64,000 nucleotides of DNA from a virus. Its lineage: Duplodnaviria > Heunggongvirae > Uroviricota > Caudoviricetes. The first letter of the stretch is position 1. Each line of letters starts with the position of its first letter. The stretch lies in IMG/VR virus record IMGVR_UViG_3300043467_001216; one strand, 5' to 3'. Below the pieces are notes generated by a model. That model made no database searches. It was not told the DNA's origin and saw only the letters and a program-made list of their open reading frames with translations. The position numbers and the translations under genes were made by a program. This document shows, in pieces, positions 15,892 to 54,805 of the stretch.

Positions 15892-15906
15892 ATATTTATT
15901 GATATG
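15892..15906 (+). promoter_or_regulatory. ATATTTATTGATATG motif containing the start codon
   Basis: identical 15-mer at 36986 and 54317. Confidence 0.5.
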
Positions 15907-17400
15907 AAAAATTTTAAACTAATAGAGTCGGACCTTAGAAAACTAGTCAGATTAATCATAGAAGAAACTGAGAATGAATCCGAAAGTGAAATTGTTAAGA
16001 TATTACCTACTGAGTTTTTAAAATTATTTAAATACACCAATAGTGTTGATGCGATTTTAAATCAAAAAAAATATAAAGATAAAAAGGTTGTGATTGCTGG
16101 TGACCTTAACTTTCCAAGTAATGATAAAGTTAAAACATTGGGTAAATTACACGGTGTTGAGGGTCGTTTGGATGTTAGTAGATTATCCAATCTACAGTCA
16201 TTAGGTGAATTAGATTTTGTTGACGGAGTTTTAGATATTTCAAGTACTAAAGTTAGTACGGTTGAAGGAGTTAGAGTTAGTGGTTCAATTAGAGATTGGG
16301 GAACACCTATTGAAACCGCAAGGTTGAGAAAAGAATTTCAAAGTAAATTAGATGAAGCTAATGAAAGACGTGAAAGTGGTGAGTGGGATGATGTTGAAAA
16401 TGATGATGAGTCAGCAAAAGCACACGCGTTACTAGAATACATTGATAATAATGAGCGTATTGATATATGGGATGAGGAGTCCAGAGAGGAATTTGATGGG
16501 TTGAAACGTAGATTAGAATTACTTAACGACCAATATAATGAGACTGATGATGATGATAGGATTGTTGAATTAACTAGTGAAATTGATGAAATTGAAGCTA
16601 GAATTGATGAGATGACAGGTCTTTATTATGACGTATACGATGCGTTACCAACAGGTTATAGTCATTATGGTGAAATGACTGTGTTTAATTTTAGAGACCA
16701 AGGTAATTTAGGTAATTTAAAAGAATATGCTGTAGGAACAAACGATGAAGCTGATAAGGCGTTAAAAGAATATTGGGAGAATTTATTGGATGACATTGGG
16801 GTTGATGGTATTCAACAATACATAATTGAAAATAACATTGATGGTGATAGGGTTGCTGAAGAGTTTGAAGAATATTATGAAGGTGATATTCGAGATAATT
16901 TAGATGTGTATTTTAATCTTGATGATTTGGAATTAAGTCCGGAACAAGAAAGTAGAAAAAGAGATATGGAATCATATATTGAAGAATTGGAATCATATAT
17001 TGAGGAAATGGAAGAAAAACAATCATCACTTGAAGATGAGATTGAAGACCCTGATGAATATTCTCAAGAATATGATAGGATTCAAGAATTAATTGATGAG
17101 GCTGAAAAGAAAAAAGAAGATGCTCAAGAGGAGATTGATGAAATGAGGGGTGAAGTTACTGATGAAATGATTGAATCTGAAGTTCAAGATAAATTATATG
17201 ATATTAGACAAGACCCATATGATTTCTTAAAAAATCAAATGGGTTATGACAGTAGAAGTATTCGTGATTATATTGATATGGATGGTGTTGTGGAAGATTT
17301 ATCTCGTGATAGTGATTATGGTGATTTAAATGGTTATGATGGGAGTTATGACGAAATTAAAATTGGAGGTGATTATTACGTTGTGATGAGAATTAATTAA
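15904..17400 (+). CDS. highly acidic protein with LRR-like N-terminal part
   Basis: start at ATG inside the conserved 15-mer; N-terminus MKNFKLIESDLRKLVRLIIEE; long D/E-rich coiled region. Confidence 0.7.
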   Translation: MKNFKLIESDLRKLVRLIIEETENESESEIVKILPTEFLKLFKYTNSVDAILNQKKYKDKKVVIAGDLNFPSNDKVKTLGKLHGVEGRLDVSRLSNLQSLGELDFVDGVLDISSTKVSTVEGVRVSGSIRDWGTPIETARLRKEFQSKLDEANERRESGEWDDVENDDESAKAHALLEYIDNNERIDIWDEESREEFDGLKRRLELLNDQYNETDDDDRIVELTSEIDEIEARIDEMTGLYYDVYDALPTGYSHYGEMTVFNFRDQGNLGNLKEYAVGTNDEADKALKEYWENLLDDIGVDGIQQYIIENNIDGDRVAEEFEEYYEGDIRDNLDVYFNLDDLELSPEQESRKRDMESYIEELESYIEEMEEKQSSLEDEIEDPDEYSQEYDRIQELIDEAEKKKEDAQEEIDEMRGEVTDEMIESEVQDKLYDIRQDPYDFLKNQMGYDSRSIRDYIDMDGVVEDLSRDSDYGDLNGYDGSYDEIKIGGDYYVVMRIN

Positions 17401-17443
17401 TTGATTAAATAACAATCAATCGTTATAATTAAATAAAAAAAAT

Positions 17444-18208
17444 ATGACTAAGAGTAGGAAAAATGATTTCATAATGGACACCGATTGGTTGTTTCAAGGA
17501 ATCATTGATGCGGAGCAAAAACAATATATCCTGTTAGATTATTTTCAAAAGTTAAATAAGGATTTTGATGAAATGAAAATATATCCAATGTTTATTGAGT
17601 TGTCATTACATTTGGGTAATATGCAAACATTGTTAACCCAAGACAAAATATTATATACCGAAAAGAAATTCACTACACCTGACGATGAATTATTGTTATC
17701 GGATTTAAAATTGAAAGAGATACCGGTATTAACTGATGAAGAAGTTGATGAGTATAAAAAGATTTTAAAACATTTCCAACCACAAATTCACGACTACTTC
17801 AACTTTGCAAAATCATTATGGACAATAGTATATGATTCTGTAACACTTAAAGTTGTTAAAAACGTTGAGAATATTGAAAAGAAGATTGGTTTTTTCTATA
17901 TTAAATACAATGAGAAAAACTACGTATGGAGATATGACAAAAAACGTGGATATAAATCACAACCTGAAGGTAGAACTGAATTAAAATTAATTTATAAAAC
18001 ATTTGATGATAATTTTGATGTGAATGAGATAATCTCGACACATTCAAAAACATATGATAAGAATAAAGAATCGGAAAGTCCGGTCTTTGAAGTTGTTTGT
18101 GATAATATATTTCCACTAAAAGAAACTGTTATTCCAATTGTGAAAAGAAAAATTTTAGCGTATATTAGCCAAACTAAAAAAGAGAAGAAACTAATAATGA
18201 TTGACTAA
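17444..18208 (+). CDS. hypothetical protein
   Basis: 254-aa ORF. Confidence 0.65.
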   Translation: MTKSRKNDFIMDTDWLFQGIIDAEQKQYILLDYFQKLNKDFDEMKIYPMFIELSLHLGNMQTLLTQDKILYTEKKFTTPDDELLLSDLKLKEIPVLTDEEVDEYKKILKHFQPQIHDYFNFAKSLWTIVYDSVTLKVVKNVENIEKKIGFFYIKYNEKNYVWRYDKKRGYKSQPEGRTELKLIYKTFDDNFDVNEIISTHSKTYDKNKESESPVFEVVCDNIFPLKETVIPIVKRKILAYISQTKKEKKLIMID

Positions 18209-18405
18209 TGAGCTTTCATAAAAGATATATTAATATCGACACAACAAAAGAATATTTAAACCGAGGGGATTTAGACGAACTATATAACGCTGACGCATAC
18301 TTCTTCAATGATGATTTGAGTTACGATGTATATAGGATGTATTTAGAGGAGTTGACTGATAAAGAAATCAAATTAAAACTAAATAACTATGGACAAAACA
18401 ATTAA
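18208..18405 (+). CDS. hypothetical protein
   Basis: TAATG coupling. Confidence 0.5.
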   Translation: MSFHKRYINIDTTKEYLNRGDLDELYNADAYFFNDDLSYDVYRMYLEELTDKEIKLKLNNYGQNN

Positions 18406-18577
18406 ATTATTACAGTCGAAACTTAGAAGACCAATTCACATTACCTACATTTCAGAACACATCTTGAAGAAAGATATTACTGAAACAAGAAAATTAGTAA
18501 CCAAACTTATGGAAGATGGTTATATGTTTGAAAGTGAAACATCTAAAGATTATTTTTATATTAAACCAAATGAGTAA
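18389..18577 (+). CDS. hypothetical protein
   Basis: 62-aa ORF overlapping neighbours. Confidence 0.5.
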   Translation: MDKTIKLLQSKLRRPIHITYISEHILKKDITETRKLVTKLMEDGYMFESETSKDYFYIKPNE

Positions 18578-18800
18578 AGAACACGTAAATCACCCAACAC
18601 ATTACGGGGGAGAAGGTAACCCTTACGAAGCAATCAAAGTGATTGATGCTTGGGAATTGGGTTTTAGTTTAGGTAATACTGTGAAGTATATCTCAAGAGC
18701 TGGTAAGAAAGAGTCTGACAAAGAATTACAAGACCTTAAAAAAGCAATGTGGTATCTTCAACACCACATCGAAGAGTTGGAGAAAAAACAATCTAATTAA
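18570..18800 (+). CDS. DUF3310 family protein
   Basis: HPTHYGG..PYEAIKVIDAWELGFSLGNTVKYISRAGKK...DL.KA.WYL is the DUF3310 pattern; start moved to ATG 18570. Confidence 0.7.
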   Translation: MSKEHVNHPTHYGGEGNPYEAIKVIDAWELGFSLGNTVKYISRAGKKESDKELQDLKKAMWYLQHHIEELEKKQSN

Positions 18801-18818
18801 TTATACAGAATAAAATAG

Positions 18819-18860
18819 TCTGGACTTATATTTATTAATAAAAATAAATTAAAGTTCAGA
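18819..18860 (+). promoter_or_regulatory. inverted repeat enclosing ATATTTATTAATAAA motif
   Basis: TCTGGACTT (18819-27) pairs with AAGTTCAGA (18852-60); motif at 18828-18842 sits in the loop; upstream of tail-fibre gene. Confidence 0.45.
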
Positions 18861-18870
18861 TTATTTTTAG

Positions 18871-21501: not shown

Positions 21502-22185
21502 ATGAGTTCATTTTCAGGTCCAAAAATAGATATTAATAACCTTGTGTTGTATTTAGATGCGGGAAACTCTGATTCTTATGTTAGTGGTTCTACCACATGG
21601 TATGATTTAAGTGGTAATAATTATAATGGTACGTTAATTAATGGTACGGGTTTTAGTAGTGAAAAAAATGGTTGTATGACATTTGATGGTATTGACGATA
21701 TGGTTAGAACAAATTTTCAAACAATAACTGTAAATAGTAGTTTTGAGATATGGGCTAATAGAACTGAGAGTGTCAACGCATATAATATGATGGCTGGTAT
21801 GTATCTACCTTATTTTGCTATGAATAGTGGTAATACTTTACACTTTTCTAATTCAATAGGTGGTGTTCAAAGAAGTGCTTTTTCTTCACCATCAGGAACT
21901 TTAATGGATAATACTTGGTATTGTTTTCATTTTGTAAATTCATATGATGGTGTTAATACAACAATGAAATCGTATATTAACGGCACTTTAGTTCGTAGTA
22001 TTACTAATACAGGTCAAACGATTACAACAACTTTTCTTCCTCTAGTTATTGGTGGTTGGAGGTCTAATTTACCAACTGATTATCCATTTAAAGGTAAAAT
22101 ATCAATTGTTAAGGTTTATAATAAAGAATTAACACAAGATGAAATTAATCAAAACTATAATGCAACAAAAGGTAGATATTTATAA
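21502..22185 (+). CDS. LamG/concanavalin-A-like lectin domain protein (paralog)
   Basis: MTFDGIDDMV and FKGKISIVKVYNKELTQDEINQNY; paralog of 20748-21476. Confidence 0.7.
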   Translation: MSSFSGPKIDINNLVLYLDAGNSDSYVSGSTTWYDLSGNNYNGTLINGTGFSSEKNGCMTFDGIDDMVRTNFQTITVNSSFEIWANRTESVNAYNMMAGMYLPYFAMNSGNTLHFSNSIGGVQRSAFSSPSGTLMDNTWYCFHFVNSYDGVNTTMKSYINGTLVRSITNTGQTITTTFLPLVIGGWRSNLPTDYPFKGKISIVKVYNKELTQDEINQNYNATKGRYL

Positions 22186-23618: not shown

Positions 23619-24539
23619 ATGATAGATACTTTTAACATAAATGACGGTAGTTTAAACAACCAAGTGTTCAACTATAATGGGAATACAGGGTGGCAAGTAT
23701 GGAACAAACCACCTAAATGTAATTTAGTGAATTTCTTTTTAGTTGGTGGTGGTGCCGGTGGTCAAGGTGGTATTATTAATTCTGCCGCCAATCGTAATGG
23801 AGGTGCGGGAGGTGGTTCTGCCGCCTTTTCATATATAACCGTTCCAGCATTTGCAATTCCCGATACTTTATATATATTAGTGGCAAGTGGTGGAACAGGA
23901 GGTGCGTCAAGTGGTGGTGCCGGTGGTCAAGGAAGTCTTAGTTATGTCTGTTCTGTACCTGATACGTCAACTGTTAATAATATATTAATGAGGAGTGGTT
24001 CGGCGAATGCGGGTGTTACAACAACAACAACTGCGGGTGCGGCAATTACTGTTGCGGATATTTTATTAGCTGAGGCTGCGTTTATTTCAGGATATGCGGG
24101 TCAAACAGGTGGTGCGGGTGGTGTAACAAGTACTCCTGCGGTTGATATAACACCAACAGGTATTCCATTCACATCAGGTGCGGGTGGTGCTGGATGTGGT
24201 TCGACAGGAACGTTAGGTGTTGCGGGGGATATCGTAGGTATTTTAGATTTCCCAATTATCTCAGGTGGTACAAATACATCATCGGCAGGTGCGACTGCGG
24301 GTTCGGGAAATAACGGATTTTCGACAAGAGAAAGTTTTACTAGCCAAAATTATAAATATCCTATGTTCTTTACAGGAGGTGCCGGTGGTGGTGCAGCCTC
24401 TAACGCAACAGGTGTTGGAGGACGTGGTGGTGATGGAGCCTATGGTTGTGGTGGAGGAGGTGGTGGTGCCGGTGGAAACACAACTGCGGGACGTGGTGGT
24501 GATGGTGGTCACGGATTAGTTATAATTACAGTTACATAA
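23619..24539 (+). CDS. glycine-rich domain protein (paralog 1)
   Basis: MIDTFNI...WQVWNKP..C..V.FFLVGGGAGGQGG...GGAGGGSA...L.ILV..GGTGG...GGDGGHGLVIIT; Gly_rich-type pattern. Confidence 0.75.
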   Translation: MIDTFNINDGSLNNQVFNYNGNTGWQVWNKPPKCNLVNFFLVGGGAGGQGGIINSAANRNGGAGGGSAAFSYITVPAFAIPDTLYILVASGGTGGASSGGAGGQGSLSYVCSVPDTSTVNNILMRSGSANAGVTTTTTAGAAITVADILLAEAAFISGYAGQTGGAGGVTSTPAVDITPTGIPFTSGAGGAGCGSTGTLGVAGDIVGILDFPIISGGTNTSSAGATAGSGNNGFSTRESFTSQNYKYPMFFTGGAGGGAASNATGVGGRGGDGAYGCGGGGGGAGGNTTAGRGGDGGHGLVIITVT

Positions 24540-24542
24540 AAT

Positions 24543-25487
24543 ATGATAGATACTTTTCACATATCAGATGGTAGTGTCAATAGACAAGTGTTCTATGCGA
24601 CAGGACCGAATACCTTCCAAACTTGGAATAAACCCCAAAACTGTAAATTCGTTTACTTCGTATTAATCGGAGGTGGCGGAGGTGGCGGAGGTGGTCAAAG
24701 TGGTGGAACAGGAACCTCTCGTAGAGGTGGTGGTTCAGGTGGTTCAGGTGGATTAACTAAAGGTATGTTTCCCTCTTCAATTATTCCTGATAGATTATAT
24801 ATTCAAGTTGGTTCAGGTGGAACTGCTGGTGTTGGTGGTACGACTAACAGTGATGGTGGTACTGCTGGTATATCATATGTTATGGTTACACCTGACACTA
24901 CTGAAACTGCACAAAATATACTACTACAAAGTAGTTTGGCGGCTGCGGGTGGTGGTCGTTCAGGTTTAAATGGTGGTGCTCTTGGTGCTGCTGCAACGGC
25001 TTGGGTATTCACTAATAATATTTTTTATAAATTTGGGTTGGTTGATACTTATGCGGGTCAAGCGGGTGTTTTAGGTCAAACAACGGCATTACCAACTAAC
25101 TTAACAATTAGTGGTATTGTAAGTGGTGGTGGTCCAGGTGCGGGTCAAAACGGTGCAACTGCACAAGAGGGTGGTTCAGTTGTTGGTGGTGGGTCAATAC
25201 CTACAATGACAGGAGGACCAGCGGGTGGTTCAGCGACATCAACAACACCCGGAGGTAATGGTAGTGGTGGATATATGACATTTACCCCTAACACACTTGG
25301 ATACACAACAGAACCATTGATATTTATCGGTGGTGCTGGTGGTGGTTCATCAGATGGTGGACCCGGAGGTTCAGGAGCTGGCGGAGCCTATGGTTGTGGT
25401 GGTGGAGGAGGTGGAGCCGGAATAACTAACCAAGGTGGTAATGGTGGTAAAGGTGGTGACGGAATAGTCATAATAACGTGGTGGTAA
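24543..25487 (+). CDS. glycine-rich domain protein (paralog 2)
   Basis: same N- and C-terminal frame as paralog 1; 3-nt spacer. Confidence 0.75.
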   Translation: MIDTFHISDGSVNRQVFYATGPNTFQTWNKPQNCKFVYFVLIGGGGGGGGGQSGGTGTSRRGGGSGGSGGLTKGMFPSSIIPDRLYIQVGSGGTAGVGGTTNSDGGTAGISYVMVTPDTTETAQNILLQSSLAAAGGGRSGLNGGALGAAATAWVFTNNIFYKFGLVDTYAGQAGVLGQTTALPTNLTISGIVSGGGPGAGQNGATAQEGGSVVGGGSIPTMTGGPAGGSATSTTPGGNGSGGYMTFTPNTLGYTTEPLIFIGGAGGGSSDGGPGGSGAGGAYGCGGGGGGAGITNQGGNGGKGGDGIVIITWW

Positions 25488-25496
25488 TATTATAAA

Positions 25497-26459
25497 ATGA
25501 TAGATACATTCAATTTACCTGGAAAGGAAAGGTATACACAAATTTTTACAGTAAACTCAAGTGGGTCAACAGGTTGGGAAACTTGGAATAAACCATCAAA
25601 CATTTCTTACATCCATATTTTATGTATTGGTGGTGGAGGAGGTGGAGGAGGGGCTCGTGGTAGTTCGCTGAATACCGCAACAGGAGGAGGTGGTGGAGGT
25701 TCTGCAGCTCACTCAATTGGATTATTTCCTGCGGTTTTATTACCTGATACATTATTCGTTCAGGTGGGTAAAGGAGGTGCTAGTGGTGTTGGTGGTGCTA
25801 AGGGTGTTAACGGAACTGATGGTGGTTCGGGAGAACATTCTTATGTGTCAGTTATACCATCAACGGGAACTACTGCGGTATTGATGAAAAACGGTACTGC
25901 GGGTGCTGATGGTGGTAATGGTGGACAAAGTTCAGTTCAAGGTGCTGCGGGAACTGCGGGAACAACTTGGACTTATAACACAACATTTATATTTCCCCAA
26001 TTAGGACAGATATCACCATTTGCTGGTCAAAATGGTGGTATCGGTGGTTCAACAGGTGGTGGTAATGGTGGTTCGATAACTATTACAGGTCCAACAACAG
26101 GTGGTGGTGGTGGAGGTGGAACAACAAGTGGTGGCTCATCAGGTGGTGGTGGTTCAATTACGGGTGTTGGGATAATACCAACTATTGTTGGTGGAACTGC
26201 GAATTCATTAACGGCTAGTAATGGTGCGGGTGGTTATGGTATGAATTTATTAACAACTGAATCAAGTTCACCAAGTCCTTTATTTTTTACGGGAGCTGCG
26301 GGTGGTGGTGGTGCTGGTCCAAATGCTGATAGAGAAGGTGGTGACGGAGGTCACGCTGCTTACGGTTCAGGAGGTGGAGGTGGAGGTGCATCTTATAATG
26401 GTAAAGGTGGTGACGGAGGTAAAGGTGGTGATGGTGTTGTAATTATTACTTGTTGGTAG
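25497..26459 (+). CDS. glycine-rich domain protein (paralog 3)
   Basis: same frame as paralogs 1 and 2; 9-nt spacer. Confidence 0.75.
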   Translation: MIDTFNLPGKERYTQIFTVNSSGSTGWETWNKPSNISYIHILCIGGGGGGGGARGSSLNTATGGGGGGSAAHSIGLFPAVLLPDTLFVQVGKGGASGVGGAKGVNGTDGGSGEHSYVSVIPSTGTTAVLMKNGTAGADGGNGGQSSVQGAAGTAGTTWTYNTTFIFPQLGQISPFAGQNGGIGGSTGGGNGGSITITGPTTGGGGGGGTTSGGSSGGGGSITGVGIIPTIVGGTANSLTASNGAGGYGMNLLTTESSSPSPLFFTGAAGGGGAGPNADREGGDGGHAAYGSGGGGGGASYNGKGGDGGKGGDGVVIITCW

Positions 26460-27382: not shown

Positions 27383-27397
27383 ATATTTATAATAAAA
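27383..27397 (+). promoter_or_regulatory. ATATTTAT-type upstream motif
   Basis: ATATTTATAATAAAA 6 nt before ATG 27404. Confidence 0.4.
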
Positions 27398-27403: not shown

Positions 27404-28477
27404 ATGAGCCATTATATTATTAATAAACACGAATTTAAAGACGTTGTTAATAAAATTTACTTAGAAGAACAAAAAAACATTTTAAATGAGAAATGGTCTA
27501 AATTAAGTAAAGGGGAAAAAATATTCGTATTAGAATTTCTAAAAGTCATATATCCTGATAAATCTAAATTAATACAAGAATCTAAATGGTATAATACTTT
27601 AGGTGATATTGCCGGTATTTTTGACCCTACAGGTGTGATTGATGTTATCAACGGTATTAGTTATTGGAGACAAGATGATAAGTTATTTGCGTTACTGTCT
27701 TGGATTTCTGTAGTACCATTAATCGGTGACGTGATTGGTAAACCTGTTATTGGTGCATTAAAATTAGGTGGTGATACTGCTAAAATGTTTAAAGCCGCAG
27801 CTCTTGCGGGTGATGCTGCTAAAGTTGCTGAAACTGCAACTAAATCAGGTGGAGCTATTGGTAAATTTGTTAGTACTTCACCTACTTGGGGTGTTAAATT
27901 ATTAGAAATTTTAAAAAATGCGGGAAACAAAGTTCCAATACTAAGACGAATGTTTAAGTTAATTGAGGAATATGTTTCAGTGTTTGTAACCGCTAGTAAA
28001 GAAATGAAACTTGGTGCTGAGGTAACCAAAGGTATCGGTCTTGCGGAAAAGGAAACGTTAAAAAATACTTTTAGAGGGTTTAGAGATTTTGGTGGGTTTA
28101 AAAATAAATACCTCAAGTACATTTCATCTAAGGACGTATCACTCTGGAAAAAATTCACTGCGGGAGCACCACGAATATTTGGTGGTAATCCGGCTACTAG
28201 GTCATTAATGAGAAGAACTAAATGGTATTTAGGGTTTCTTGATTTCTTAGGTATTGGTGATTTTAAAACAACACCTGATGAATTAATGATTAAGTATCCG
28301 AATATAGAACAACAAGTTAATAAGTATAATCAAACTGAAAAGGCTCAACAAACATGGAATCAAGATTTTGGTTCAGGTGGTGATACACAAACCCAACAAA
28401 CAGATGGTGGGTTAAATACTCAAGATATTATGGGTATAAACCCGTTAGAAGTTTTTTTAAATCCTTTGTTTAAATAA
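27404..28477 (+). CDS. hypothetical protein
   Basis: 357-aa ORF; antisense 165-aa ORF rejected. Confidence 0.65.
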   Translation: MSHYIINKHEFKDVVNKIYLEEQKNILNEKWSKLSKGEKIFVLEFLKVIYPDKSKLIQESKWYNTLGDIAGIFDPTGVIDVINGISYWRQDDKLFALLSWISVVPLIGDVIGKPVIGALKLGGDTAKMFKAAALAGDAAKVAETATKSGGAIGKFVSTSPTWGVKLLEILKNAGNKVPILRRMFKLIEEYVSVFVTASKEMKLGAEVTKGIGLAEKETLKNTFRGFRDFGGFKNKYLKYISSKDVSLWKKFTAGAPRIFGGNPATRSLMRRTKWYLGFLDFLGIGDFKTTPDELMIKYPNIEQQVNKYNQTEKAQQTWNQDFGSGGDTQTQQTDGGLNTQDIMGINPLEVFLNPLFK

Positions 28478-29922
28478 TGAAAAAAATAGTAAGATTAAAT
28501 GAGAATCAAATGACCGATGTCATTAAACGAATGATAATGGAGTCAGGGATTCGTGATATTAATAAAATCGCTGAGAGATATCGAAAAGCTAAAATTTATT
28601 TTCATCAAGATTTGGATGGTGTAACAACTGCGATTGCGATGAAAGAATATTTAAAACAATATGGGATTGAAACCGTTGATTGTGAGGTAATACAATACGG
28701 TGATAAAGAATGGTCGATTAAAAAACCTGAAGGTAGTGGTGATGTTATGCCTGTATTGGTTGACTTTGCTCACGGTAAACCAATGTTTGTTATTCACACA
28801 GACCACCACGACACACAAGCGGGTGTTGAATCAGGGACTGCAACAAACTTTAAATCATCACGTTCAAATGTTGAAACTATATCACAATCAATATCACCAA
28901 AAGAATTATTCCCAAGTGATGATTTGTTATTAATCTCGACGGTTGACTCGGCGAATTTTGCACCAAACGATATCACAGTTGATGAGGTTAATAATTACAT
29001 CTTCAACTTAGATAAAGAAAAATCAGTTCCAAAAAACAAAATGGCTCTTGGTTTGACGATTAATAAATTATTATTGGCGTTTAAAAACAAACCTGATTTC
29101 TTAGAAGAATTGGTTATGGAATCAACACCATCTTTACTTAATATCTTAACTAACATTAAGAGAATTATGAAAGAGAAGGGGTTTGCGTCAGTTGATGTTC
29201 TACAACAAAATAGAGACAACTACGTTCAATCAATGAAGAATCATCCTAACGTTAAAGTTATGGATAATATCATTGTTCAATACGGTGGTGGTAATATGAT
29301 GAAACCTGGTTCTTATGATAGGTATACACCATTTAAAAACAATCCTGAAGCTGACTTTATAGTTATTGCTTGGCCGTTGGGGTTAGTTCAAGCGTCTTGT
29401 AATCCATTCAAAAAAGAGAGAGCATTGAAAGGTGTTAACTTAGGTGAGGTTAAAGATGAGGTGTTATCTAAATGGGAAACACAATTAAAACAAAAAGAAA
29501 TTCCATTATCTACAATCAAATGGGTATCTGAGAACAAATTAAATACTGAGTCAGTTGGTTTTACGTTTAAAGATTTTGAAGCATTGTATGGTGAAAAATT
29601 TAGTAAGATTAACAACGGACCTGAATTATTAAACATTATTAGTAATATAATGCAAAGACATTATAATAGTTTAAGTGATAAACAAAAATCTATTATGGAG
29701 AAAGTAACTGTTAGTGCTTGGGATATAATTCAAGCTAATAGTGGTGGACACAAATGTATTACGAATATATCAGGTCTTAGTTATTTAGGTAAGAACCCTC
29801 AGAAATTATCAGGAGGTGGAAGTTACCAAAAAAGTGAAGATGATTCACCATCGGTTAAGTTTACAAAAATGATTCAAAACGAATTTGTAAGAGTATTACA
29901 ACAAAAAATACAAGAAGGTTAA
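28477..29922 (+). CDS. DHH/DHHA1 family phosphoesterase (NrnA/RecJ-like)
   Basis: HQDLDGVTTA, VLVDF, VIHTDHHD (DHH motif) and C-terminal NSGGHKC (GGGH-like DHHA1 motif). Confidence 0.75.
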   Translation: MKKIVRLNENQMTDVIKRMIMESGIRDINKIAERYRKAKIYFHQDLDGVTTAIAMKEYLKQYGIETVDCEVIQYGDKEWSIKKPEGSGDVMPVLVDFAHGKPMFVIHTDHHDTQAGVESGTATNFKSSRSNVETISQSISPKELFPSDDLLLISTVDSANFAPNDITVDEVNNYIFNLDKEKSVPKNKMALGLTINKLLLAFKNKPDFLEELVMESTPSLLNILTNIKRIMKEKGFASVDVLQQNRDNYVQSMKNHPNVKVMDNIIVQYGGGNMMKPGSYDRYTPFKNNPEADFIVIAWPLGLVQASCNPFKKERALKGVNLGEVKDEVLSKWETQLKQKEIPLSTIKWVSENKLNTESVGFTFKDFEALYGEKFSKINNGPELLNIISNIMQRHYNSLSDKQKSIMEKVTVSAWDIIQANSGGHKCITNISGLSYLGKNPQKLSGGGSYQKSEDDSPSVKFTKMIQNEFVRVLQQKIQEG

Positions 29923-30260
29923 AATTCTATTCGGTCGTCAAGTTTAATACCTAAACGTTTGCATGTACCACCTTTAACTTCTAAAATCATATCACCTTCA
30001 CCACAATAGTTTCCACAATCTTTTGATTTACAAGGGGGACAATTGTGGTGGATGTTTGATATCATACCATCTTTAATAAAGATTATATCCAAAGGTATCA
30101 CACAATTTTTCATCCAAAAACAATGGTCGGCATCATCCATTAAAAATAACATACCTTGATTTGGTGATGTAAACTTTTTTCCCATCATACCGTTTGATTT
30201 ATCCTTGGGGGTAATCATAGTTTTTACTACAAACTTGTTATTATTAATTCGAATATTCAT
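29919..30260 (-). CDS. DUF192 family protein
   Basis: GMMGKK...GMLFLMD....FWMKNCVIPLDIIFI..G.I matches the DUF192/COG1430 pattern. Confidence 0.75.
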   Translation of the reverse strand: MNIRINNNKFVVKTMITPKDKSNGMMGKKFTSPNQGMLFLMDDADHCFWMKNCVIPLDIIFIKDGMISNIHHNCPPCKSKDCGNYCGEGDMILEVKGGTCKRLGIKLDDRIEF

Positions 30261-30294
30261 ATCTATAAATATTGTGAGGTTAAATAAAATTAAC

Positions 30295-33927: not shown

Positions 33928-33986
33928 GAAATAACGTTTCTTTGTATCGTATAACAAAGTGGTGGATGTGCCTCTATGGCCCCAAA

Positions 33987-36935: not shown

Positions 36936-36967
36936 CCCCCCATCTGTTAAAGGTGGGGGTTTTTTTA
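36936..36967 (+). terminator. rho-independent terminator
   Basis: CCCCCA-tctgttaaagg-TGGGGG followed by T8. Confidence 0.85.
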
Positions 36968-36985: not shown

Positions 36986-37000
36986 ATATTTATTGATATG
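36986..37000 (+). promoter_or_regulatory. ATATTTATTGATATG motif containing the start codon
   Basis: identical to 15892 and 54317. Confidence 0.5.
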
Positions 37001-40610: not shown

Positions 40611-40625
40611 GTATTTATTAATAAA
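40611..40625 (+). promoter_or_regulatory. GTATTTATTAATAAA motif
   Basis: 8 nt before ATG 40634. Confidence 0.45.
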
Positions 40626-42484: not shown

Positions 42485-42499
42485 ATATTTATTAATAAA
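42485..42499 (+). promoter_or_regulatory. ATATTTATTAATAAA motif
   Basis: identical to 18828; 8 nt before ATG 42508. Confidence 0.5.
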
Positions 42500-42507: not shown

Positions 42508-44172
42508 ATGAGAAATATATTAGCCGAACAAATTAGTAAGATGCAATCTATGATGGGTATTCAAGATGACTTACTACTTGAAGCTTCGAAATTAAAAATA
42601 TTAACAGACAAAGAAGGTTTAGACCAAGACCAAGCGGAATTACTTGATGAGTTATGCGGTGGGTTATCGGTTTGGATGTTAAGTAAGATAAAAGATTTCC
42701 AAAGAGAAACGGCTAGAATTAGAAATATGGAGGATTTATCCGATAAAGCAATGATTAATTTAATAAATGTCAATGGGTTAACTAGTAGGATAAGACCAAA
42801 CATTATTAATGTTATGGATTGGGTTCGAGTTGGGTTGAATAGTAATGTTAAACCATTTAAAAACTTAACATTACAAGAGTTAGATAAGAAAGCTAAGGAA
42901 TGGCACGAATCATTGAGTATTGGTCAAGGTGATATTAATTATGTTGAGAAAAATGACATAATTAAAGACTTCCGTGATGAAAATGGTAATGGGTTTTATT
43001 GGGCTGACTTGAATACTAAGGATTCGAAGGAAGAGTCTGAAAGAATGGGTCACTGTGGTCGTTCAAATTATGGGTATATATATTCATTAAGAGAAACAAA
43101 ACCTATTAATGATAAATTCAAAATCAATAGAAGTCATTTAACAACCGCAATTGGACATGATGGTATTATGTATCAATTAAAAGGTCCTAAGAACTCTAAA
43201 CCTAAAGAAGAATACCATAACTACATTTTACCATTGTTTTATGTGTTAGGTGGTGAAGGTGAAGAAGATGATTATTTAGTTAAAGGATTTGGAACCGAAT
43301 ACGCGTCACAACAGGATTTCAAATTAAGTGACTTACCTGATGATGTTATCAGAGAGTTATATCGAAATAGACCTGAATTGTTTGAAGGTAGAGTGATGAT
43401 GAGAAAATTGGTTGATATGGGTATAATTGATGCTCCTAATGTTAACTATAATATTACACTTAATATAGACCCTGATGATGTTACAAGATATGTTGATGGT
43501 GATTACGTTTATAGAAGATATAAGAAAAAGGTTACAACACCTGCGGGTCAAGAATATGAAAGAACTGTTGAAGTTACAATGTTTGAATTAATATTAGCGG
43601 GAGAAACTTGGGATTTATATTATAATGACTATACGGATTGGAGAGATTGTCTTAACTATTACGTAGATGATAAGAATGAACAAGAAATTAGAGAAATTTT
43701 AAGAAAAGTTGCTGAACGTGATGATGATGAATTCATTGCTGAAGATTTTGACGAAATGGATATTGAGGATATTATTGAAGAATATGATGATAATCATAGT
43801 ATACAAAGTGCGTTAGGTAATGCTCAAAGTAACGCTGAAGCGGATGATTACTCTAATTATTTATATGGATTATTAAAAGATGCGTTACAAGAATATGGGA
43901 CAATTGAGAAAATGAATGATGAGGGGGTAATCTTACATATAGATACACAACGATATTTTGATGATGTTCATTCTGATTATCTTGATGAATATTTTGAAAG
44001 ATGTGATGATGATATTGAATGTACCTTTAAGGAACTTGCGTATGAAGGTGAAATTGAAAAACCAAAGTGGGACCCTGATGATAGATGGTATCCAAGCGTT
44101 GATAAAAATAACTATAATGAAATGTTATCCGATTATCTCTACGATGTAAGAAGTGAATATAATGTAAAATAA
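42508..44172 (+). CDS. acidic protein with PcfJ-like motif
   Basis: 554-aa ORF; ERMGHCGRSNYGYIYSLRE...SHLTTAI; D/E-rich C-terminal half. Confidence 0.65.
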   Translation: MRNILAEQISKMQSMMGIQDDLLLEASKLKILTDKEGLDQDQAELLDELCGGLSVWMLSKIKDFQRETARIRNMEDLSDKAMINLINVNGLTSRIRPNIINVMDWVRVGLNSNVKPFKNLTLQELDKKAKEWHESLSIGQGDINYVEKNDIIKDFRDENGNGFYWADLNTKDSKEESERMGHCGRSNYGYIYSLRETKPINDKFKINRSHLTTAIGHDGIMYQLKGPKNSKPKEEYHNYILPLFYVLGGEGEEDDYLVKGFGTEYASQQDFKLSDLPDDVIRELYRNRPELFEGRVMMRKLVDMGIIDAPNVNYNITLNIDPDDVTRYVDGDYVYRRYKKKVTTPAGQEYERTVEVTMFELILAGETWDLYYNDYTDWRDCLNYYVDDKNEQEIREILRKVAERDDDEFIAEDFDEMDIEDIIEEYDDNHSIQSALGNAQSNAEADDYSNYLYGLLKDALQEYGTIEKMNDEGVILHIDTQRYFDDVHSDYLDEYFERCDDDIECTFKELAYEGEIEKPKWDPDDRWYPSVDKNNYNEMLSDYLYDVRSEYNVK

Positions 44173-44175: not shown

Positions 44176-44205
44176 AAACCCCCAGGTAAAATTGGGGGTT
44201 TTTTA
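44176..44205 (+). terminator. rho-independent terminator
   Basis: CCCCCA-ggtaaaat-TGGGGG followed by T6. Confidence 0.85.
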
Positions 44206-47104: not shown

Positions 47105-47359
47105 ATGGCAGCAATTACAATGAGTGAGGTGAAGATAGGTAGAACAACATATCCTGTTAAGAGTGGTGATTATATTTTATATAATGGTGCTTGTTATCAG
47201 TTTATAGCTGGTGATGGTAGAACTTTGAAACAAGAAGGTTTTACCGGTTATAGTAATTTGAAAATGCCTATGACATTAATTAAGAAAATACCGTTCATCA
47301 GAATGACAAAAGTTAGTTTCAATAAAAATGGGGTGGATTTAGTAAAATGGTATTTCTAA
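47105..47359 (+). CDS. hypothetical protein
   Basis: 84-aa ORF. Confidence 0.5.
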   Translation: MAAITMSEVKIGRTTYPVKSGDYILYNGACYQFIAGDGRTLKQEGFTGYSNLKMPMTLIKKIPFIRMTKVSFNKNGVDLVKWYF

Positions 47360-47685
47360 ATATAAGGATTACCAAACTCTTTTAAACTATTAAACATATC
47401 TTCGATACGTTTACATTCTTTAATGAAGTTAGATGCAATCTCAGGGGGTAATTGGAACCATTCAGTTCCCCCTTCCAACAAATACTTAAAGTAATCTCGT
47501 TTCATTACCGTTTCAATTTTTGTGTAGTATTCTGATTGGTGTTTACGTAGTAAGACTAACTCGTGAGGGTTTGAAGTCTGATGGGCTTTTAGTCTTAATT
47601 GGGGGTCATTTTTTGAGATACCGATTTTATATCGTTCAGGTTCGGAACCCCATTCAACTATTAGATATACATAACCATAATCCAT
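47356..47685 (-). CDS. T5orf172/GIY-YIG-like domain protein
   Basis: GYVYLIVEW....YKIGISKNDPQLRLKAHQTSNPHEL......EWFQL pattern. Confidence 0.65.
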   Translation of the reverse strand: MDYGYVYLIVEWGSEPERYKIGISKNDPQLRLKAHQTSNPHELVLLRKHQSEYYTKIETVMKRDYFKYLLEGGTEWFQLPPEIASNFIKECKRIEDMFNSLKEFGNPYI

Positions 47686-50754: not shown

Positions 50755-50976
50755 ATGAAGAAAAAAGATTTCAAATTCAATACAAAAGAACGTAAGTCAG
50801 TTAACGCAGACTTAAATGATTTCTGTTATTTGGCAAAACCTCACGACTTCATTGAAGTTACTGATTGGTCCAATCTTGATGGTTATGATATCACATTAAA
50901 TGATAAACATATCTCATTAACAAGAGGTGAGTTGGATGCAATTAAAGCGTTAGTTAAAAAATTAAATAAATTATGA
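50755..50976 (+). CDS. hypothetical protein
   Basis: 73-aa ORF. Confidence 0.5.
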   Translation: MKKKDFKFNTKERKSVNADLNDFCYLAKPHDFIEVTDWSNLDGYDITLNDKHISLTRGELDAIKALVKKLNKL

Positions 50977-51458
50977 ACTTATACGAAACATATCTTAATA
51001 CTAAATCATCAGGTTCAGTTGAAGATAGAATTGAGGTGATGAACGACATCATCAGACAAAATCCTAAGTTAATGGATTATATTGAAACCAAGATTGATTC
51101 CTGTTATGGGACTCACATTGTTTACTTGGTTAATATGAGGGTTAACGGTGAAGATATGTTGAAGATAGGTTATACCAAGAATTCTGTTGATGGTAGATTT
51201 GGTGAACATAGATATGCCGGTAGAGATAGTTTGGAGATTGTTGAGAAAATCCGAGAAGGTAAGTTACAAGCCAAAGGTGCGATTGAGTTTGAGAAATCAC
51301 TAAAAGAGAAGTTTAAAGACTTCAAAATCACGACTGATTTAACACTACCTGGTAAAGGTGAATTTTATGACATCGTATTCTATGATGAAATGATAAGGAT
51401 ATACGACGAAGAATATCCCAAATTTATAAATGTTATCGGTTTAAAGTCCCCTAATTAA
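50973..51458 (+). CDS. T5orf172-like domain protein
   Basis: HIVYLVNM......LKIGYTKNSVDGRFGEH........GEFYDI. Confidence 0.55.
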   Translation: MNLYETYLNTKSSGSVEDRIEVMNDIIRQNPKLMDYIETKIDSCYGTHIVYLVNMRVNGEDMLKIGYTKNSVDGRFGEHRYAGRDSLEIVEKIREGKLQAKGAIEFEKSLKEKFKDFKITTDLTLPGKGEFYDIVFYDEMIRIYDEEYPKFINVIGLKSPN

Positions 51459-51467
51459 TGTTAGGGG

Positions 51468-51482
51468 ATATTTATTTATATG
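51468..51482 (+). promoter_or_regulatory. ATATTTATTTATATG motif containing the start codon
   Basis: preceded by hairpin CCCCTAA-ttaatg-TTAGGGG. Confidence 0.45.
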
Positions 51483-52028
51483 AAAGTTATAATTACGGAA
51501 TCTAATTTAAAATATGTGATATTCAGATATTTTGATAATCAAAAAAGTAAAGGTCAACAACCTTATGTAAGTAGTAGACTGTATAAATTATTTAAAAGTG
51601 ATGAAGACACTTTGTTGGATTACTTATTTGATTACCTTGGTGGTAGAGACGGTGCTACTGAGGTTGCTAAAAAAATGTTAAAAGAATTACCTGATAGGAT
51701 TAAAATAAATGATGCACAATTTGAGGGTGAGTTTTATTATTCAATCTATGATGTAGGTAGTGAGATTAACCCATATGATGGTTATTTACCTGTGTTTATA
51801 GATTGTTATGGTGATGTTAATGGTGCTCCTGTATGGAATGATGATAATGGAGATTACGATTATATTGATACTACATTATATGATTGGTATTCGGAGTTGG
51901 ATATGACTGAAGGTTGGGAAGTAAAAGATACTTTTGTTTCAGATATTAATGGTCAATTTTTTGATTTGATAACACGATATACGGGTGTACCAATTAATGT
52001 TGAAGGATTCTCAGTAATTGATGGATAA
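51480..52028 (+). CDS. hypothetical acidic protein
   Basis: N-terminus MKVIITESNLKYVI. Confidence 0.6.
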   Translation: MKVIITESNLKYVIFRYFDNQKSKGQQPYVSSRLYKLFKSDEDTLLDYLFDYLGGRDGATEVAKKMLKELPDRIKINDAQFEGEFYYSIYDVGSEINPYDGYLPVFIDCYGDVNGAPVWNDDNGDYDYIDTTLYDWYSELDMTEGWEVKDTFVSDINGQFFDLITRYTGVPINVEGFSVIDG

Positions 52029-52032: not shown

Positions 52033-52058
52033 TAAACCCCCTTAATTGGGGGTTTTTT
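52033..52058. terminator. bidirectional terminator
   Basis: A-run, CCCCC-ttaatt-GGGGG, T6. Confidence 0.85.
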
Positions 52059-52059
52059 G

Positions 52060-52676: not shown

Positions 52677-53063
52677 ATGAGTAGAGTTAATTTGATTGCA
52701 TCAACAGGGTTAATCTTCAATGAAGATAAGTCAATGGTATTAGGTGTGTCACGTAAAGACGATAAAACTAAATTTGGTTTACCTGGTGGTAAGGTTGATG
52801 AAGGTGAAACAATGTATGAAGCATTGGTTAGAGAGTTGAAAGAAGAAACAGGATTGGATGTTATTAAGGCGGTCCCGATATATTTCAGAGAAGATGGTAT
52901 ATACGTGACCGTGGTTTATTTGATTAGTGAATATTCAGGTGATATATATACAGAAGAGGCCGGTGTCGTTAAATGGGTTACATTTGAAGAATTGAAACAC
53001 GGGGCGTTCTCAGAATACAATACAATGTTGGAGGAACATTTGAAATTTATAAATTATATATGA
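52677..53063 (+). CDS. Nudix hydrolase
   Basis: Nudix box GLPGGKVDEGETMYEALVRELKEETGL. Confidence 0.85.
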   Translation: MSRVNLIASTGLIFNEDKSMVLGVSRKDDKTKFGLPGGKVDEGETMYEALVRELKEETGLDVIKAVPIYFREDGIYVTVVYLISEYSGDIYTEEAGVVKWVTFEELKHGAFSEYNTMLEEHLKFINYI

Positions 53064-53818
53064 ATATGAAGAAATTAATTTATTTTACATTAGGTAATAA
53101 TCCAAATTACTTAAAATTGGCTGATATGTGTATTAACAGTTTATATCATAATGGTTATGATGGTGATTTTTTATTTATAACTGACTTAAAGAATGAGATT
53201 TTAAACCAAATCAATTTTAAAACTCAACCTTATTTTTTAGAATTAAAAGAATCTTCATTGTTAGAATCGTCGGCGAATAAACTTAAAGTTTATTCATTTA
53301 ATAAAATAAATGAATATGATAAAATTATATTTTCAGATTTAGATATTTTATGGGTGTCGAACCCTGAAATAATTTTTAATCTTATTGATGAGGATAAATT
53401 TTATATGAGTAATGAAGAAGGGTTAATGACTGATGAATTATGGGGTGGTTTGTTGTTAACTGATACTGAAAAAATTGAAATTGACCAATTGAAAATTTTT
53501 GGGTTAAATTGTGGTCTATTTGCGTTTAATAACAAAATGATACCGTATTTAGAGCAGGTTGATTTATTTTTGAATAATAATTTAGAGTTACAAAATGTGT
53601 GTTTAGAACAACCATTTTTGAATGTTTATGTTTATCGTAATAATTTATATAATAATAAATTGAATGGTTTGGTTAGTCATAAAGGTTATCATTTTGTTAA
53701 TTCACCTTTAGATTTAATCAAATATGATGGTGTTGTTTTACATTTTGCAGGTGGTCCTGGTAATTATGATTTTAAATATGAAAAAATGTTGATTTATTTT
53801 AACGAATATTTTAAATAA
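53060..53818 (+). CDS. glycosyltransferase (GT8-like, DxD)
   Basis: IIFSDLDILW DxD motif; overall nucleotide-diphospho-sugar transferase layout. Confidence 0.6.
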   Translation: MNMKKLIYFTLGNNPNYLKLADMCINSLYHNGYDGDFLFITDLKNEILNQINFKTQPYFLELKESSLLESSANKLKVYSFNKINEYDKIIFSDLDILWVSNPEIIFNLIDEDKFYMSNEEGLMTDELWGGLLLTDTEKIEIDQLKIFGLNCGLFAFNNKMIPYLEQVDLFLNNNLELQNVCLEQPFLNVYVYRNNLYNNKLNGLVSHKGYHFVNSPLDLIKYDGVVLHFAGGPGNYDFKYEKMLIYFNEYFK

Positions 53819-53830
53819 ATAACGTGTTAT

Positions 53831-54031
53831 ATGTTGGTTGAGGGGGAATATAATTATGCTAAACTAATTACTATTGAAGGTGATGTTGTCGCGGTTGCGG
53901 TTATGGAAGTAGGTTCAGAGAATGAAGCTGGTGTTGTTAATTGGGCTTTAGATAATGATTTCACCTTAGTTAAGATTGACGAACAAGAGTTTTTGGATTT
54001 TGAAAGTGATTATGATATTGAACTTGAATAA
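53831..54031 (+). CDS. hypothetical protein
   Basis: 66-aa ORF. Confidence 0.5.
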   Translation: MLVEGEYNYAKLITIEGDVVAVAVMEVGSENEAGVVNWALDNDFTLVKIDEQEFLDFESDYDIELE

Positions 54032-54069
54032 AATTTTCACTCAGGTGTTGTGCATATCCAAAAGATAGT

Positions 54070-54077
54070 TATATTTG
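54070..54077 (+). promoter_or_regulatory. Bacteroidetes-type -7 box driving the sRNA
   Basis: TATATTTG with no ORF downstream. Confidence 0.5.
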
Positions 54078-54083
54078 TAGTGT

Positions 54084-54306
54084 GTGAGTGTCACACAGGA
54101 TGTCAGAACTCCTAACTTACAATCTGACCATTAAGTATCAGGTGAGATGATACGGGTTGATTACCCCAACTTAGTAAGTGAAACCATCAGGATGTCAGAA
54201 CTCCTAGTTCACAATCTGACCACTAAGAATCGGGTGAGGCGGTTCGGGTTAAACACCTCAATCCAAAGGATGAAATTTAAACCCCCAAGTACATTGGGGG
54301 TTTTTT
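54084..54306 (+). ncRNA. candidate phage sRNA: 5' hairpin, two tandem 92-nt pseudoknot-like units, intrinsic terminator
   Basis: no ORF on either strand; units start at 54096 and 54188 (46 of the first 52 nt identical); AGGA/TCCT interleaved with GTCAGA/TCTGAC; terminator CCCCCAA-gtaca-TTGGGGG followed by T6; 5' end approximate. Confidence 0.6.
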
Positions 54307-54316
54307 GTTTTATCTA

Positions 54317-54331
54317 ATATTTATTGATATG
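54317..54331 (+). promoter_or_regulatory. ATATTTATTGATATG motif containing the start codon
   Basis: identical to 15892 and 36986. Confidence 0.5.
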
Positions 54332-54805
54332 AAAATAATATTAACTGAGAATAAGTTAGATAAAATAATTGAAAAATATGGTATAGTTAAAACCATTAGA
54401 AATATTGGTGGGTATAAAAATTTTGATAAAATATACCCTGATTATTTTTATTCAGGTGATACATCACAATGGGATAGAGAACGTGTTATTAATTTTTTAA
54501 ATGAATGTGTTGAGGTTAATAACAGAATAGAAAATGAATCAAGTATTTATCTTCACGACTATTGGGAAGATATCTTATATCAAAGTTGGAGTGATTATAA
54601 TGAAGATGCTGGTAGAGAGTTTCAGTATGAATCTAGAATAATGTCTATTAGTACTGATTTTGCACATACTGAAGTGTGGCAATATGATGAGGAAGGTGAA
54701 ATGTTTGATGAAGCTTACGATTATAATGATATACCTTTGAATAGATTGGAAACTAGGTTTTTAAGTAAAATATTTGGGCAACTTTGGGGGGTATTTAAAT
54801 TATGA
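54329..54805 (+). CDS. hypothetical acidic protein
   Basis: N-terminus MKIILTENKLDKIIEKY; start inside the conserved 15-mer. Confidence 0.6.
   Translation: MKIILTENKLDKIIEKYGIVKTIRNIGGYKNFDKIYPDYFYSGDTSQWDRERVINFLNECVEVNNRIENESSIYLHDYWEDILYQSWSDYNEDAGREFQYESRIMSISTDFAHTEVWQYDEEGEMFDEAYDYNDIPLNRLETRFLSKIFGQLWGVFKL

Follow-up and report, generated by a model that had tools for sequence, protein, structure and literature searches.

A recurrent N-terminal peptide tag on unrelated proteins of T4-like jumbo phages: a candidate capsid-targeting propeptide

The DNA described here (the window) is a stretch of 64,000 nucleotides from a tailed phage of the class Caudoviricetes (IMG/VR record IMGVR_UViG_3300043467_001216), with a GC content of ∼31%, nearly all genes on the + strand, and no Shine-Dalgarno (SD) sequences found in the window. 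Six of its proteins open with the same short amphipathic peptide, referred to here as the tag, and four others open with looser versions of it. The original prediction was that these proteins share no similarity past their first ∼20 residues, that most of their genes stand directly behind a common DNA motif, and that the tag is a targeting signal or propeptide resembling the capsid-targeting sequence (CTS) of T4-like phages. All ten N-termini quoted in it were exact on re-reading. The genes, named below by their first coordinates, are listed with their tags and the residues that come next; loci outside the window carry numbers preceded by L.

15904-17400, + strand: tagged gene for an acidic coiled-coil protein of 498 aa (pI 4.2); tag MKNFKLIESDLRKLVRLIIE, followed by E
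28477-29922, + strand: tagged gene, 481 aa, with a weak match to DHH phosphoesterase; tag MKKIVRLNENQMTDVIKRMIME, followed by SG
34042-34398, + strand: tagged gene, 118 aa, pI 4.05, D/E-rich tail; tag MGTIIINEKQLETLVNRLKNNINE, followed by GG
40634-41836, + strand: tagged gene, 400 aa; tag MKHKIMITESQYKKLLRGINE, followed by QQ, a variable linker and a conserved cargo domain
51480-52028, + strand: tagged gene, 182 aa, pI 4.1; tag MKVIITESNLKYVIFRY, without the second [LI]xE described below
54329-54805, + strand: tagged gene, 158 aa; tag MKIILTENKLDKIIE, followed by K
54802-55278, + strand: tagged gene, 158 aa; motif shifted to residues 10-21 (LITESRLFDRFV)
3162-4898, + strand: tagged gene of a second flavour, 578 aa; N-terminus MKRENSLISKLVDKVLNE, followed by T
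9386-10771, + strand: loose member, 461 aa, leucine-rich repeat (LRR) C-terminus; N-terminus MKITSVLRNILLE, followed by DSRFEN
42508-44172, + strand: loose member, 554 aa, acidic; N-terminus MRNILAEQISKMQSMMGIQDDLLLE, followed by A

The ATG of 28477 overlaps the stop codon of gene 27404-28477, and 54802, which lacks a promoter motif of its own, has a start that overlaps the 3′ end of 54329-54805. The 15904 tag holds both L6-I7-E8 and I18-I19-E20. The 3162 protein contains a Dockerin_1/EF-hand-like segment and, at residues ∼360-378 (nucleotides ∼4239-4301), an internal copy of the tag (TVTESELISLIEEMVNEE). Genes 27404 and 47721 (- strand) are possible further members. Orthologues of 15904 occur in L041 (MGRKLRLTESELYKVIKRIIKE) and L044 (MDLKKSNLKKTIIRVLREEEE), the IMG/VR orthologues of the DHH protein 28477 start with the canonical MKIIITESQYKMLIKESGIRDI, and 54329 has a homologue in L079 at 34% identity. 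The N-terminus of 9386 resembles MDIKLLLERIILTEGRVEN of L097, and that of 42508 is comparable to MKQNLLNEEIRRIKNMMGLQEQ of L079.

The motif was originally worded with T or N before the Glu, a position at which 15904 has I. With I admitted, the regular expression [LI][TNI]E[SNK].[LMY]..[LVI][LVI] matched six times in the 125-ORF proteome of the window (19,902 aa), always within the first 20 residues and never internally, the mean in residue shuffles being 0.06; a looser expression gave 11 matches, six of them N-terminal vs 0.23 N-terminal expected. The expression was composed after the six members had been seen, so this chance test is post hoc and independent support rests on other genomes. A local hidden Markov model of the tag (14 columns) placed five of its top six matches at N-termini, at scores too low to discriminate. 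The codons of the motif vary among the window members (GAA/GAG, TCG/TCT/AGT, ATT/ATA/TTA/CTA), and those of 114 unique tags from IMG/VR match background usage, with serine drawn from both the TCN and AGY families; selection therefore acts at the level of the peptide and not of the nucleic acid (DNA or RNA). All-against-all BLASTP of the ten proteins without their first 25 aa gave a best E-value of 0.034, which bears out the claim of no similarity past the tag: the ten are unrelated beyond residue 25. It was also claimed that no described family matches the peptide, and this too stood, since no Pfam or PHROGs family covers the first 25 residues of any member (weak matches fall on the cargo only) and the peptide strings were not found in a literature text search; the CTS concept is known already, and it is this peptide that has no description in these sources.

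The wider distribution of the tag was traced in IMG/VR with a degenerate DNA pattern for MK-x(0-2)-IIITE-S-Q, which returned at least 120 stretches; those listed hold 135 in-frame matches (114 unique), all at true ORF starts. The ORFs opened by these matches encode 15-526 aa, on contigs whose GC content is 27-34% and whose length reaches 322 kb. The IMG/VR consensus is MKIIITESQ-[YLF]-x-x-[LI]-[LIT]-E, and the canonical form is MKIIITESQ-Y/L-x-x-L-L-x-E (16-24 residues). Judged by their sequences, the tags of the window (MKVIITESN, MKIILTENK, MKKIVRLNENQ) are diverged copies of this very common tag, and the view of the peptide as private to one phage is abandoned. In 596 Gbp of prokaryote genomes the same DNA pattern gave 31 matches, 20 of them out of frame, and the four convincing ones lie on 3-13 kb contigs of metagenome-assembled genomes (MAGs); given this near-absence, the tag belongs to phages and not to cells. 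A sorting signal of the Bacteroidetes host was rejected on the same counts (31 mostly out-of-frame matches, the four plausible ones on short MAG contigs), and a Sec, Tat or lipoprotein signal peptide was rejected because just three hydrophobic residues precede T-E-S. A 19-residue segment with a Kyte-Doolittle value ≥1.7 was present in 0/10 window proteins and 1/92 IMG/VR cargo proteins, and strong transmembrane segments were present in 1.1% of tagged cargo vs 8.4% of controls (p = 0.007).

The tag is conserved better than the proteins that bear it. Orthologues of 40634 (50-94% identity) have invariant M1, K2, I7, E9, S10, Q11, Y12, L15, E21 and Q22, retaining MKHKIIITESQY..L.....EQ followed by an indel-rich linker, and homologues at 26% identity still retain MKxKIIITESQY.ALL..L.EQ. 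In an AlphaFold2 model of 40634, residues 1-49 have pLDDT <50, with a lone helix (residues 9-22) before a disordered linker and the folded cargo; a fold search with this model gave no significant match, the best being the MotB periplasmic domain (MotB/OmpA-like, E 0.03). From its better retention and its lone modelled helix, the tag is a separate module. It also exists in other flavours: M..[IL].RI[IL]REE occurs in L018, immediately to the right of the window, as well as in L029, L044, L089 and L097, and ..EEI.RIK.MMG is another variant. Three of the looser members of the original set (3162, 9386 and 42508) turned out to carry such other flavours. The 34042 family in relatives carries MKNLNYIIKKVIRETQEE instead of MGTIIINEKQLETLV; two flavours on one cargo indicate that flavours are interchangeable and imply a single function. 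Taken over all these observations, the tag is real, peptide-selected, N-terminal, phage-specific and modular, and is carried by soluble, unrelated cargo. As a separate observation, positions 105-7460 of L079 (IMGVR_UViG_3300008261_000091) hold ∼nine tagged genes of mixed flavours in a row within 7.9 kb, a hypervariable array that recalls the internal-protein loci of T4-type phages.

The cargo is diverse. Pfam searches of 92 tagged IMG/VR proteins matched 18 families, the majority of the proteins having no match, and the families include Phage_lysozyme (6), LysM (3), extracytoplasmic function (ECF)-type sigma-70 (3), DHH (3), Hydrolase_2, PG_binding_1, DUF6576, Kyano_Gp96 and a treble-clef zinc finger. 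An Fe/Mn superoxide dismutase (SOD) fusion and one further lysozyme have tag-like N-termini. The tagged ECF-type sigma factors are 181-192 aa long, with the tag directly before region 2. The median pI of tagged cargo is 5.1, and several window members have pI 4.0-4.5. MKIIITESQ-tagged ECF-type sigma genes can be seen at L189 6783-7346 (-), L247 2357-2932 (+) and L242 907-1449 (+).

The DNA motif upstream of the tagged genes, ATATTTAT, occurs 32 times in the window vs 16.8 ± 4.0 expected, and TATTTAT lies ≤40 nt upstream of 8/10 tagged vs 12/115 other genes (Fisher p = 4e-6). The distance from box to start codon falls into two classes, 4-5 nt or 12-17 nt. Boxes and the associated hairpins are as follows.

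15892-15899, + strand: ATATTTAT box of the almost leaderless class, 4 nt before the ATG of 15904
51468-51475 and 54317-54324, + strand: ATATTTAT boxes of the same 4-nt class, before tagged genes
22176-22183 and 36986-36993, + strand: ATATTTAT boxes of the same class, before untagged genes
30265-30272, - strand: ATATTTAT box of the same class, before untagged gene 29919-30260
34020-34027, + strand: ATATTTAT box of the 12-17 nt class, 14 nt before the ATG of 34042
3139-3146, 9363-9370, 27383-27390 and 42485-42492: ATATTTAT boxes of the 12-17 nt class
40612-40618: box of the 12-17 nt class, TATTTAT only
33984-34007, + strand: terminator-like hairpin directly upstream of the 34042 promoter
51446-51469, 52034-52055, 44176-44201 and 36937-36959: similar terminator-like hairpins

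The predicted coupling of tag and DNA motif is therefore upheld by the counts, and it is one-way, as the box also serves untagged genes; its standing as a tag-specific partner falls away. An identical 15-mer, ATATTTATTGATATG, lies at 15892-15906, 36986-37000 and 54317-54331, with the box 4 nt from the ATG. In other loci it stands before baseplate genes for gp25 (PF04965), before GIY-YIG genes, before the gene that lies between portal and protease (the prohead-core position) and before tagged genes, and the ATATTTAT-type box is therefore a general late-type promoter. In IMG/VR, only 52% of tagged genes have the box ≤40 nt upstream, leaving ∼48% without it. The 4-nt spacing suggests leaderless or nearly leaderless late mRNAs. 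The 15-mer also makes ORF finders extend genes to upstream TTG/GTG starts, producing a spurious '..IFIDM' peptide. Terminator-like hairpins number 19 in the window vs 6.0 ± 2.6 in shuffles, and 34042 and 51480 are examples of tagged single-gene cassettes flanked by them, 51480 having hairpins on both sides.

A different box, TAnnTTTG (Bacteroidetes sigma-A type), lies upstream of 12033, 30308, 31152, 33703, 35960, 44592 and 59565 and at L003 7060-7094, and probably represents a second, early promoter class. A sigma-70-family phage gene just left of the window (L003 7705-8505) belongs to an operon preceded by a TAnnTTTG box, and its product is a candidate that may read the TATTTAT promoters.

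Proteins of the window recur on JGI metagenome contigs of 225,927, 249,462 and 250,222 bp, so the source is a jumbo phage of ∼250 kb. Megablast and tblastn searches of 50,697 GenBank phage records found no close or useful relative of the window DNA or the motif proteins. The nearest cultured relative of its SbcC is that of Microcystis phage Mel-JY01, which has a TerL/portal/protease/bS21/T4-like capsid module; the gp21 protein P0021, which belongs to a different phage (226.5 kb), also has its best GenBank match in Mel-JY01. Common to the window phage and Mel-JY01 are a gp61-like primase gene directly before SbcD-SbcC, the fused SbcDC, DUF5856 and a small gene associated with the clamp loader. 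Cyanophage core proteins used as queries matched only gp47 and NrdC in the window region. On the strength of the SbcC and gp21 matches and the shared gene order, the window phage very probably belongs to a distant T4-like lineage. Left of the window, four large tail-fibre-looking paralogues (375-879 aa, starting MSFS.S.CL) lie at L507 427-8901 (-), which corresponds to roughly -18.5 to -10 kb in window coordinates, divergent from the primase-SbcDC block and in the same order as in Mel-JY01.

In tag-bearing loci, the cyanophage queries identified homologues of gp17, 18, 20, 21, 23, 25 and 44, and in L223 a tagged gene adjoins gp17-gp20-x-x-gp21. A gp21 profile collected 7,721 proteins, of which all 120 listed belong to PF03420 (Peptidase_S77); the top match, P0021, lies in a module of TerL, Portal_T4, reverse-strand bS21, Peptidase_S77 and Gp23. 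Gp23 and Portal_T4 are the only capsid/portal families in 25 of 57 families of large neighbouring ORFs. Homologues of 34042 (56-85% identity) are found in 18 gp21 loci, one or two genes from gp23. In L341-L350 (e.g. L342 9218-9412 (-)), a reverse-strand bS21 gene stands between portal and prohead protease, each behind a TATTTAT box. Relatives carry type IX secretion system (T9SS) sorting domains, the Bacteroidetes-type TAnnTTTG boxes stand upstream of several window genes, and the head module of the relatives matches that of the bS21 huge phages, whose predicted hosts are freshwater Bacteroidetes (Chen et al. 2022, PMC9723584). With these phages the tag-bearing contigs share the module of TerL, portal, reverse-strand bS21, the protease of the prohead and the major capsid protein, ∼31-34% GC and predicted Bacteroidetes hosts (PMC9723584), and from their gene content they are members or near neighbours of this group. 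A difference is that the bS21 phages measure 293-331 kb, compared with 250 kb for the window phage, whose bS21/head module was not seen in the ∼100 kb read. Neither the word promoter nor the word motif occurs in the paper on these phages (PMC9723584).

In T4, the prohead protease gp21 cleaves after L/I-X-E, and internal proteins carry N-terminal CTS propeptides of 10-19 residues, where residues 4 and 7 function in targeting and residues 8 and 10 in processing (PMC9026906); the CTS sequence is MKTYQEFIAE (PMC8442874). The new tags begin at Met1, and their conservation stops at residues 14-24. They contain a first protease-like site, I-T-E, within residues 5-9. A second [LI]xE whose Glu falls at residues 10-20 is present in 75% of 114 tags vs 28% of 997 untagged N-termini, with no enrichment at residues 21-31 (19% of tags vs 23% of controls); its Glu lies mainly at residue 15-16, and the next residue is S, A or N. 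In the window, 5/6 core members have the second [LI]xE at residues 15-24. Within this clade, the gp23-type capsid site aligned to T4 E65/A66 reads LINE/A (slashes mark the site), the alignment having been made with a cyanophage sequence from the database and with what we take to be the T4 capsid sequence. There is also a conserved ILIE near the gp21 N-terminus.

We put at about one half the probability that the tag serves T4-like Bacteroidetes phages as a portable N-terminal propeptide for capsid targeting. A CTS-like propeptide is the best explanation because of the protease-site enrichment, the T4 spacing, LINE/A in the capsid, ILIE in gp21 and the depletion of membrane segments. In the proposed mechanism, tagged proteins would be made late from the TATTTAT promoter, and the strand MKIII together with the amphipathic helix TESQ-Y/L-x-x-L-L-x-E would dock onto the scaffold core as the prohead assembles, so that the cargo is enclosed. 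A gp21-type protease, which the window phage itself would have to possess, would then cut after the Glu of the tag-ending [LI]-x-E (residues 15-24), and perhaps additionally after I-T-E (residues 7-9). The freed cargo would remain in the head and exit with the DNA at the next infection.

The likeness to the T4 CTS is one of design. Both are short N-terminal peptides on unrelated, non-essential proteins of T4-like phages, with an MK- start, a hydrophobic-x-Glu end and a gp21-family protease in the lineage (PMC9026906, PMC8442874); the T4 spacing Y4, F7, I8, E10 (Y..FI.E) equals the Y/L..LL.E of the new tag; and in both the genes lie in variable regions and have predicted late expression. They differ in that the new tag has no alignable identity with MKTYQEFIAE, is 16-24 aa long compared with 10 in T4 IPIII, and has an extra conserved strand-and-cap segment, MKIIITES, with the first I-T-E. 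Dozens of genes per genome are tagged here, compared with about four in T4, and the new tag comes in several interchangeable flavours on mostly acidic cargo including sigma factors, lysozymes, DHH and SOD. Since only MK- and the spacing are common to both, the new tag would be no more than an analogue of the CTS, or else a relative that has diverged very far.

As first predicted, the CTS-like idea has gained from the protease-bearing lineage, the L/I-x-E ends, a promoter common to virion genes, soluble cargo, a detached helix, absence from cells, and an orthologue of 34042 inside T4-like head modules. Several points weigh against it. Packaging and cleavage of the tagged proteins are predictions from genes, and the whole tag-bearing clade is uncultured. 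Contig walks reaching -19 kb and +82 kb, which covered ∼100 kb of the window genome, turned up no gp21 gene; the 120 listed gp21 proteins (of 7,721) all lie off its contigs, and a 20-mer promoter scan, also aimed at the protease, found no match on two IMG/VR contigs spanning the remainder of that genome. [LI]xE is low in information, occurring in 28% of controls, and an amphipathic acidic helix would often contain it. The 51480 tag is without the second site, the L044 orthologue has K for the first Glu, and sequence identity with the T4 CTS is absent apart from the spacing. On average the cargo is acidic, in contrast to T4 internal proteins, which are basic, and the dozens of tagged genes per genome are far above T4. 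Mel-JY01 has the same head module and almost no tags. To our knowledge, neither ECF-type sigma factors (3/92) nor lysozymes with LysM have been described before as head cargo.

Several other functions may be considered for the tag, which could also act as a sorting or regulatory signal, new and specific to phages, whose partner is unrelated to the prohead. It is rather unlikely that the tag docks proteins to a phage partner other than the prohead core, such as the virion exterior (capsid decoration, whiskers, baseplate), the tail lumen, a chaperone or an intracellular assembly site. Such docking would agree with the binding and cell-wall cargo (lysozyme, LysM, PG_binding_1, Hydrolase_2, LRR, dockerin-like, possible OmpA/MotB fold), with tagged genes that neighbour sheath, tube and baseplate genes, with the phage specificity of the tag, and with the acidity of the cargo, which suits a DNA-filled head poorly. 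However, sigma factors, DHH and Fe/Mn SOD are implausible on a virion exterior, no tag is present on known components of the virion (sheath, tube, gp25, portal, TerL), such docking does not account for where the protease motif is enriched, and no candidate for the partner came to light. A degron or regulatory pro-sequence, by which late accessory proteins are held inactive or timed for proteolysis by a Clp- or Lon-type protease of host or phage, comparable to the pro-sequences at the N-termini of sigma-E and sigma-K in B. subtilis, is quite improbable: it gives no reason for a tag on tiny zinc-ribbon or very acidic proteins, does not explain the association with head modules, and would need a host protease to read a foreign signal that is absent from host proteomes. 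This idea draws on the tagged ECF sigma factors and lysozymes, which would be harmful if active too soon, on the Clp-type ATPase of a related 203-kb phage (L013) and on the DnaJ of the window phage.

Two proposals place the function, or its absence, in the nucleic acid. The tag might be an expression element, its first 10-16 codons aiding initiation or early elongation on leader-poor, SD-less mRNAs, possibly via phage bS21 ribosomes, as the frequent ending of the box 4-5 nt before the ATG, a slight lean of the tag Ile and Thr codons to A-ending, and the bS21 gene in the head module of relatives (PMC9723584) would allow. This is very unlikely in view of the amino-acid-level conservation, with both serine codon families in use and other codons at background, and of conserved hydrophobic and Glu positions that reach residues 11-17; gp25 and GIY-YIG genes with identical promoter and spacing are untagged, ∼48% of tagged genes have no box ≤40 nt upstream, some lie close behind another gene, and one tag copy is internal. 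Promoter/stem-loop cassettes (PeSLs) mediate modular shuffling in T4-type genomes, and the hairpin-promoter-gene cassettes in hypervariable T4-like regions seen here are similar, with the difference that PeSLs are conserved non-coding DNA and the conserved element here is a peptide with variable codons. That the promoter, start and first codons are merely a PeSL-like recombination linker, and the peptide a functionless by-product of cassette shuffling, is highly improbable, because the copies share little DNA identity yet keep the peptide, synonymous codons vary freely, orthologues at 26-60% identity retain the tag better than the cargo, and the alignments already point to purifying selection on the peptide. 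Shuffling may account for the spread of the tag, in keeping with the many tagged single-gene cassettes between terminator hairpin and promoter and with the arrays in hypervariable regions (L079), and not for its conservation. An artefact of AT-rich codon usage (enriched in K, I, N, E and L), which the original prediction had itself named as the alternative, can be dismissed: MK- starts and Ile-rich N-termini are indeed common in a 31% GC genome, but the statistical scan (6 vs 0.06 expected), the 135 N-terminal matches elsewhere and the tag kept in distant orthologues refute it.

Encapsulin cargo-loading peptides are likewise short and portable and send diverse enzymes into an HK97-fold shell; they differ in being usually C-terminal and uncleaved, and in serving a bacterial compartment rather than a virion. 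The giant phages phiKZ, 201phi2-1 and SPN3US have many head-internal proteins and a diverged gp21 homologue that removes the propeptides of head, inner-body and ejection proteins by cutting after x-x-Glu (PMC9026906). Like the tag-bearing phages they are large, and their propeptides often have more than one site, as in the new tag (PMC9026906); they differ in lineage and hosts, in their S/A/G-X-E motif, and in having long propeptides without a short shared consensus.

Should the tag be a propeptide for capsid targeting, the proteins injected by these phages could be listed with a regular expression, hundreds of unannotated ORFs in the widespread, uncultured and ecologically active bS21 huge-phage lineage would gain a testable role, and the anti-defence concept of T4 internal proteins would extend to Bacteroidetes. 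An injected sigma factor would be a candidate takeover mechanism that could reprogramme host RNA polymerase on entry, and a ready packaging tag would be available for engineering phages of Flavobacteria and Bacteroides. It is conceivable, if somewhat doubtful, that the tag is an address, legible from sequence, on a very large repertoire of proteins packaged in the head and injected, with dozens per genome, in abundant T4-like jumbo phages of freshwater and marine Bacteroidetes. Among its members would be ECF sigma factors, enzymes acting on the cell wall, DHH phosphoesterases and many uncharacterized acidic proteins; it might, tentatively, constitute the largest capsid-targeting system known, and one predictable from the sequence alone. 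A different function would equally call for explanation, since the peptide is better conserved than its proteins, present in thousands of genes and absent from cells.

Other genes of the window were also recorded. Tagged genes 54329 and 54802 sit among NAD-related genes (52677-57196), namely a NUDIX gene (52677-53063), a cytidylyltransferase/NMNAT-like gene (55536-55958) and SIR2 (56483-57196). SmpB, the transfer-messenger RNA (tmRNA) partner (PF01668), is encoded at 30308-30742; despite this gene, no tmRNA was found in the window by ARAGORN or Rfam. In a tRNA cluster at 60273-61531, Rfam gives four tRNA-like matches, three of which are long (99, 114 and 115 nt at 60273-60371, 60443-60556 and 61297-61411, respectively) and may hold insertions or introns, and ARAGORN calls only tRNA-Thr(tgt) (61462-61532). 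Three tandem paralogues of 306, 314 and 320 aa, all starting MIDTF and two with faint Gly_rich_2 matches, occupy 23619-26459, a stretch of 46% GC in the 31% GC genome that adjoins two Laminin_G_3 genes and a gene for a 626-aa tail-fibre-like protein. Genes with T5orf172/MUG113 domains at 47356-47685 (-) and 50973-51458 (+; weak match) are likely homing-endonuclease-like.

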